Origin: Eledone cirrhosa
Taxonomy: Eukaryota
Assembly (NCBI GenBank): GCA_964016885.1
Contig: OZ024759.1
Span: 26,040,001 to 26,104,000, forward strand
DNA length: 64,000 nt
Direction of reading: 5' to 3'
Below, in pieces: positions 49,666 through 49,962 of this stretch; position 1 is the first letter of the stretch; every line of letters starts with the position of its first letter. The notes beneath the pieces are model-generated. The model was not told the DNA's origin. It made no database searches and worked only from the letters and a program-made list of their open reading frames with translations. A program made the position numbers and the translations under genes.

Positions 49666-49962
49666 CCGTCCCCTCAATCTAACTTATTTCTCATCTTTCT
49701 CCTGATGAAGGACTAGCGTCCGAAACGTCAAGACTCTCTTCCTGCTATTTCAAGCGTTAACCTAATATATTCCTTCCATATACTGTACCGATTGTGTCGT
49801 TATTTCTGTTTACCTTTTACACACACACACACAAACACAACTTCCCGATGAAGGACTTGTGTCCGAAACGTCGTAACGTCTCCCGCTCTCACCAAGCGTG
49901 AAACTAATGACACTATGTACCATTGACTCCTGCGTTTGTTTGTTTCTTTGTCCTTTTCACCT
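49666..49962 (+). mobile_element. Two tandem family B units, each with a minimal HHR (49698-49733; 49841-49875)
   Basis: CUGAUGA-A-GGAC UAGC GUCC-GAAACGUC and CCGAUGA-A-GGAC UUGU GUCC-GAAACGUC. Confidence 0.8.

Follow-up and report, generated by a model that had tools for sequence, protein, structure and literature searches.

Two minimal hammerhead motifs lying 143 nt apart (core start to core start) on the same strand are very probably carried by two 3'-end pieces of different Penelope-like element (PLE) families, here called F1 and F2, which likely inserted independently at a simple-repeat hot spot; the pair is predicted not to cleave. Both lie in a window of 64,000 nt, the whole stretch of DNA that we analysed, which belongs to a chromosome-scale contig; the genome measures 3.0 Gb and is rich in microsatellites. 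A minimal hammerhead pattern matched the window three times (cores at 35114, 49702 and 49845) vs 0.00 expected from 100 shuffles. Rfam at its gathering threshold returned no hammerhead matches in the window. The features to which we refer below are as follows.

35110..35145, + strand: third motif, in an F1 copy; core intact, site GUU, stem I of 4 bp
49518..49664, no single strand: adjacent inverted pair of a third hammerhead-like repeat family, 70-nt arms, 83% complementary, longer stem III
49666..49818, + strand: pLTR remnant of PLE family F1 (3' end, 5'-truncated), starting 36-37 nt upstream of C3
49698..49733, + strand: unit 1 minimal hammerhead, whole
49698-49701, + strand: unit 1 stem I 5' strand, UCUC, with a C-A mismatch at 2.1-1.1
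49702-49708, + strand: unit 1 core, followed by the extra A at 49709
49710-49721, + strand: unit 1 stem II, loop UAGC
49722-49725, + strand: unit 1 GAAA, followed by ACGU at 49725-49728 and C17 at 49729
49730-49733, + strand: unit 1 stem I 3' strand, AAGA
49819..49837, + strand: (AC)n tract joining the two remnants
49838..49962, + strand: remnant of PLE family F2, the older one (3' end, 5'-truncated), with the cut ~7 nt upstream of C3
49841..49876, + strand: unit 2 minimal hammerhead, whole, with stem I CUUC/GUAA paired at 2/4 positions
49845-49851, + strand: unit 2 core CCGAUGA (U4C)
49853-49864, + strand: unit 2 stem II, loop UUGU
49868-49871, + strand: unit 2 ACGU, followed by C17 at 49872

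All three motifs contain stem II GGAC/GUCC, GAAACGU, a stem III made of the A-CG-U palindrome (ACGU), and an extra nucleotide between 9 and 10.1 (an A after A9) together with G10.1-C11.1. The conserved boxes CUGANGA and GAAA-N-N-UH are intact in unit 1, whose core reads CUGAUGA, and in the 35114 copy; unit 2 has a U4C change, at 49846. The first-pass annotation had described the extra A, the A-CG-U stem III, the U4C change, a stem II loop that varies (UAGC in unit 1 and the 35114 copy, UUGU in unit 2) and a third copy near 35110 with a perfect stem I (UCUU/AAGA, 4 bp) and GUU, and we recovered each of these from the sequence. It had also given GUC as the cleavage site, which is correct for unit 1 (49727-49729) and unit 2 (49870-49872) but not as a family norm: the 35114 copy has GUU, as do 95 of 99 F1 copies in a position-ordered set. 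An alternative register for unit 2, with a longer near-palindrome (ACG-U-CGU) and a GUA site, was judged by eye and set aside; it leaves 1.1-2.1 unpaired.

The two units differ in what follows them. Unit 1 and the 35114 copy have in common a ~90-nt tail, which runs up to an (AC)n or (AT)n tract and has its best genomic matches at 93-97% identity. The F2 tail, which follows unit 2, has best matches 84-91% identical; it is homologous to the F1 tail and alignable with it, but diverged. The two motifs had been read as units of one tandem family, a reading that does not survive the assignment of their tails to F1 and F2 with an (AC)n tract in between. Median tail divergence from the family majority is 4.3% for F1 and 15.6% for F2, the latter from 26 of 30 fetched loci after exclusion of 4 with other tails. 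The window copies diverge from their majorities by 5.4% (unit 1), 13.8% (unit 2) and 0% (the 35114 copy). Genome-wide we counted 3,634 exact F1 cores (control 0), 47 exact F2-type cores and 10,523 matches to a generic core with free stem II (control 3). The C-A mismatch at 2.1-1.1 of unit 1 occurs in 0/99 position-ordered F1 copies and in a few best-match copies. U4C is present in 9/47 F2-type cores vs 0/99 F1 cores, which suggests that in F2 it is an inherited variant and not a private hit; a U-U in stem I is frequent in F2 as well.

Simple repeats flank both remnants. A short (AT)n precedes the F1 remnant and (TA)n follows the F2 remnant, while (AC)n is the usual sequence after F1 3' ends, with 47 of 61 scored ends running into ACATACAT, ACACACAC or ACATATAT. 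F1 copies are mostly short (median 103 nt upstream of the core, 99 loci); the one at 35114 keeps ~250 nt upstream and ends near 35230. The F1-(AC)n-F2 junction was spanned by the window alone, 1 of 41 matches to a junction query; contigs from three sequencing runs of one sample did not reach across it and carry no information on this point. A repeat search of the whole window was dominated by microsatellites. The inverted pair at 49518-49664, of which the + arm core near 49597 is decayed, amounts to a third hammerhead-like insertion directly upstream and fits a spot that took several insertions; three hammerhead-bearing stubs lie inside 250 nt. We infer that each stub arose by reverse transcription that was primed at (TA)n/(CA)n and stopped short of the 5' end, that F2, the older stub, came first, and that the younger F1 stub would then have landed just upstream.

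There is strong evidence that F1 is the 3' end downstream of RT plus GIY-YIG coding sequence in a Neptune/Nematis-type PLE. Upstream of one F1 copy (locus L061), and on its strand, lie degraded frames for RT and endonuclease. The RT piece of this locus, used as a query, gave 150 scored matches, and among 20 loci picked by RT similarity the F1 motif was found downstream on the same strand by pattern in 14; unit 1 blastn matches were present in 17, one of them reversed. At locus L217, a frame of 625 codons has RVT_1 and GIY-YIG hits, both below Pfam cut-offs, with a CX4CxxC linker after the RT and two cysteines within the GIY-YIG core. The account of EN+ PLEs available from Craig et al. (2021, PMC8557442) gives RT, a CX2-5CxxC linker and, at the C terminus, GIY-YIG with internal cysteines as the Neptune/Nematis layout, and the L217 frame matches it by domain layout. 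Pfam gave no RT or endonuclease match on nine short frames of degraded copies, nor on one of three longer frames, and a PDB sequence search gave no match. We saw no fully intact parent element, and the window carries only non-coding ends. The link of F2, as a 3' end, to an RT/GIY-YIG element is weaker than that of F1: weak endonuclease-region fragments lie upstream at two distinct sites (L037, the same as L070, and L083), with E-values of about 3-6e-5. Unrelated RT and GIY-YIG frames of PLE type, from other families, also occur near F2 copies (L070, 246-2871, - strand; L069, 114-1073, + strand).

Comparison of genomic copies speaks for a structure that is real in the parent elements, because helices change in a compensatory manner between families. 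Stem II had been described as constant GGAC/GUCC, which is true of the window; genome-wide, a compensatory A-U to G-C change at 10.3-11.3 is present in 9 cores (counted by eye) among the first 100 listed, so it is the pairing that is conserved, as the first-pass annotation had expected of genomic copies. In 227 contexts, the 10.1-11.1 pair is G-C in 212 (the search pattern favours it), the 2.1-1.1 pair is U-A in 156 and C-G in 36, and the 2.3-1.3 pair is C-G in 138 and U-A in 32, these being counts over copies of few families and not over independent events. ACGU is common to F1, F2 and a family with stem II GGGC/GCCC, among which stem I differs by compensatory changes. When both positions were left free in the search, 72 cores among the first 100 on the list kept the CG of the palindrome and 28 had lost it, 20 of these reading TG, CA or TA (by eye), the pattern that would be expected of CpG decay in dead copies.

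Tandem arrangement is not enriched in our sample, contrary to the suggestion that this type of motif might occur in tandem more often than expected. For F1 we sampled 99 loci, each with flanks of 2.5 kb, out of the first 100 exact sites; they lie in the first 107 Mb of one chromosome, and the hundredth site falls inside L189. To these we added 30 of the 47 F2-type cores and best-match sets, for 193 anchored loci in which 9 anchors are the same site twice. Counts were taken from position-ordered listings and fetched flanks, a small and partly biased sample, and expected numbers of close neighbours were estimated from the 300-2500 nt flanks. No same-strand motif lay within 300 nt at any of the 99 F1 loci, the nearest being at 521, 723 and 899 nt; the upper 95% bound on the F1 tandem rate is 3%, and an excess below about 3% is compatible with this sample. 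Over all 193 loci there were 2 same-strand neighbours at <300 nt (those of L100/L101, below) vs 1.8 expected (reversed control, 0). Genome-wide, 180-530 pairs would arise by chance at the local density (one motif per 29-50 kb) and only about 6 at the generic exact-core density (1 per 285 kb), so that local clustering of insertions must be assumed. A second close tandem, with F2 followed by F1 and cores 223 nt apart, was found at L100 and L101 (G000 C2, near 384.48 and 385.13 Mb), which have identical flanks and probably represent one duplicated event. The F1 piece there is 5'-truncated, is mutated at G8 of its core and directly abuts the F2 end with no microsatellite. Opposite-strand motifs within about 300 nt occur at L043, L177, L119 and G000:C1:379470887-379471254, and some opposite-strand pairs are arranged tail-to-tail over a shared (TA)n tract. 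We also noted a further family resembling minimal hammerheads, whose stem II is GGGU/ACCC and whose stem III is longer; it neighbours F1 and F2 copies at L138, L144, L203 and L052.

These neighbours bear on the possibility that PLE machinery targets earlier PLE ends beyond its (TA)n/(CA)n preference, with the resulting neighbours still lacking ribozyme function. We regard this as unlikely but deserving of some weight. The three stubs inside 250 nt, the direct F2-F1 contact at L100/L101 and three opposite-strand neighbours within 300 nt speak for it, and PLEs tend to insert into or beside existing copies according to the portion of a review available to us (PMC6765202). Against this, neighbours within 300 nt on both strands number 5 in 193 loci vs about 3.6 expected, which is no clear excess, and targeting differs from chance insertion only in how the stubs met.

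PLE hammerheads have reportedly been found by Lunse, Weinberg and Breaker to cleave as dimers. In the double hammerhead geometry outlined in Cervera and De la Pena (2014, PMC4209133), stem I is formed between units, the 5' strand coming from one and the 3' strand from its partner, in both cores; the same account has minimal hammerhead (min-HHR) monomers as inactive and dimers as weakly active in vitro. In the parent elements, same-family copies would pair via ACGU, and each core would cut the partner's strand after N17, weakly. The window pair had been thought suited to dimeric folding, and here the earlier reading does not stand: unit 1 is mismatched (C-A) at 2.1-1.1, half of unit 2's own stem I is unpaired, and the cross stem I between the units has 2/4 pairs in each core. 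The intact core of unit 1 faces the site of unit 2 with C-G at 2.1-1.1 and the next two pairs mismatched, and the U4C core of unit 2 faces the site of unit 1 with the 2.1-1.1 pair missing. Reciprocal stem I pairing that includes 1.1-2.1 in both cores was therefore not found at the locus. F1 dimers of one family have 4/4 stem I pairs per core; likewise, same-family neighbours elsewhere (L193, L194) have 4/4 pairs and other mixed neighbours (L100, L057) are mismatched.

In folding calculations with the double hammerhead specified, the 35114 homodimer had an energy of -11.3 kcal/mol, against -9.9 (unit 1), -2.3 (unit 2) and -2.7 (mixed pair), and minimum-energy alternative dimers lay at -20 to -25 kcal/mol in all cases. 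Within the 297 nt of natural sequence, the pair probability of stem III in the dimer was 0.0 and the constrained double-hammerhead fold lay 18 kcal/mol above the ensemble (fraction 2e-13). Nearest-neighbour energies exclude hammerhead tertiary structure and were used for ranking only; because of this, and because even the good F1 homodimer lies about 10 kcal/mol above its own minimum-energy dimer, the absolute numbers are weak evidence. We note that the F1 majority sequence UUCUUC upstream of the core (window 35108-35123) can pair with GAAGGA, giving a hairpin of 6 bp in which the first box is sequestered, that stem II probability falls to 0.24 in the 35114 monomer, and that AACGUU at GUU sites makes the palindrome longer by taking in A14 and U17.

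A working intramolecular double hammerhead, in which the two ACGU palindromes pair within one transcript and one or both sites are cut, would draw on the same strand and short spacing of the units, their intact palindromes and stems II, their GUC sites, a nested and hence possible topology, the C-G pair at 2.1-1.1 that the intact core of unit 1 makes with the site of unit 2, and the weak in vitro activity of dimeric constructs in the published work (PMC4209133). The model nonetheless appears very improbable. It meets a half-paired cross stem I in both cores, a U4C core whose site lacks the 1.1-2.1 pair, an unfavourable fold and a junction found once; U4C is described as considerably decreasing activity in vitro, while still allowing viroid infectivity, in the available account (PMC3088659). 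Because the two families have stem I strands that do not fit each other and one core carries U4C, the F1-F2 tandem is a poor double hammerhead and is predicted not to self-cleave.

Scarcely credible, finally, is an origin as retrozyme-like repeat units or as a partial tandem from one PLE insertion: the tails are homologous and alignable, partial tandems are known from PLEs (PMC8557442, in part) and retrozymes are described as hammerhead tandems of 150-450 bp (PMC7229834, in part), but the families differ in age (4% vs 16% median divergence), each unit is far closer to dispersed copies than to its neighbour, a microsatellite separates them with no second junction copy among 41 matches, and F1 and F2 both lie downstream of PLE coding sequence.

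Everything that the first-pass annotation listed about the motif, from its class and extra nucleotide to the palindrome and the model of dimer folding, is already published (PMC4209133, as far as that text was available): the class is that of PLE minimal hammerheads, and the palindromic stem III is the published basis of dimer folding. Like the PLE terminal-repeat min-HHRs of metazoans described there, the motifs are type I with a short helix I (4 bp here, 4-5 there), no loop 3, an extra nucleotide at 9/10.1, G10.1-C11.1 and a palindromic 15.2-16.2. As in that account, they occur in thousands of mostly single copies, probably from truncated PLEs, and form several consensus families with compensatory changes. 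They differ from the Schistosoma min-HHR families (helix II of 7-8 bp) in a helix II of 4 bp plus tetraloop, and from the min-HHRs in the portion of PMC4209133 available to us in the GUU site of F1 and, for F2, in a frequent stem I U-U and a U4C that looks inherited. Metazoan non-LTR retrozymes and the newt and axolotl double hammerheads, as outlined in PMC7229834, also have an unstable palindromic helix III that needs a partner, and the spacing of our units is within the short-tandem range. Retrozymes, however, are tandem copies of one unit, mostly with canonical hammerheads, and give abundant RNA in linear and circular form, whereas here two families, both from coding PLEs, are joined once; head-to-tail copies of one unit were not what we found, with two families, a junction seen in 1 of 41 matches and 0/99 close F1 tandems. 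In literature on cephalopod PLE hammerheads and hammerhead heterodimers, which covered few subscription papers, we found no description of these families or of mixed pairs.

The locus itself, read as independent insertions, is of little import, being a cluster of dead retrotransposon ends. From the F1 and F2 families, in turn, same-family and mixed pairs can be drawn that make a clean series for examining partner choice in dimers. Since ACGU is common to the families and stem I is compensatorily different, we put forward only tentatively, as something we think rather unlikely as a whole, that stem I and not the palindrome would set this choice, with family hammerheads cutting only their own kind, and that F2 may have kept moving with a weakened ribozyme. 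If the first part held, natural mixed tandems would be ready-made negative controls; if F2 kept moving with U4C and the stem I U-U, cleavage would be dispensable for retrotransposition. The in vivo function of PLE hammerheads is described as a still open question in the available text of PMC8557442. Were the mixed pair to cleave, host transcripts might be cut by pairs of the many dispersed stubs, which would be of consequence; the evidence speaks against it.

Several other repeats in the window deserve mention. The third hammerhead-like repeat, an abundant one found at 49518-49664, also occurs at 48040-48230 and, on the - strand, at 9173 and 14153. It has a stem I of up to 6 bp, a 4-bp stem III closing a near-palindromic loop, a GUA site and a weak stem II without G10.1-C11.1, and it is often present as inverted head-to-head pairs (2,278 candidates, 40 scored). 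A near-perfect inverted repeat at 47601-47716 (57-nt arms, 98% complementary), beside (TA)n, has GAAAC and CUGA-like boxes and resembles the back-to-back end of another retroelement family. From 50100 to 64000, the window consists of ~14 kb of C/A-rich low-complexity sequence with a GC skew of about -0.8.
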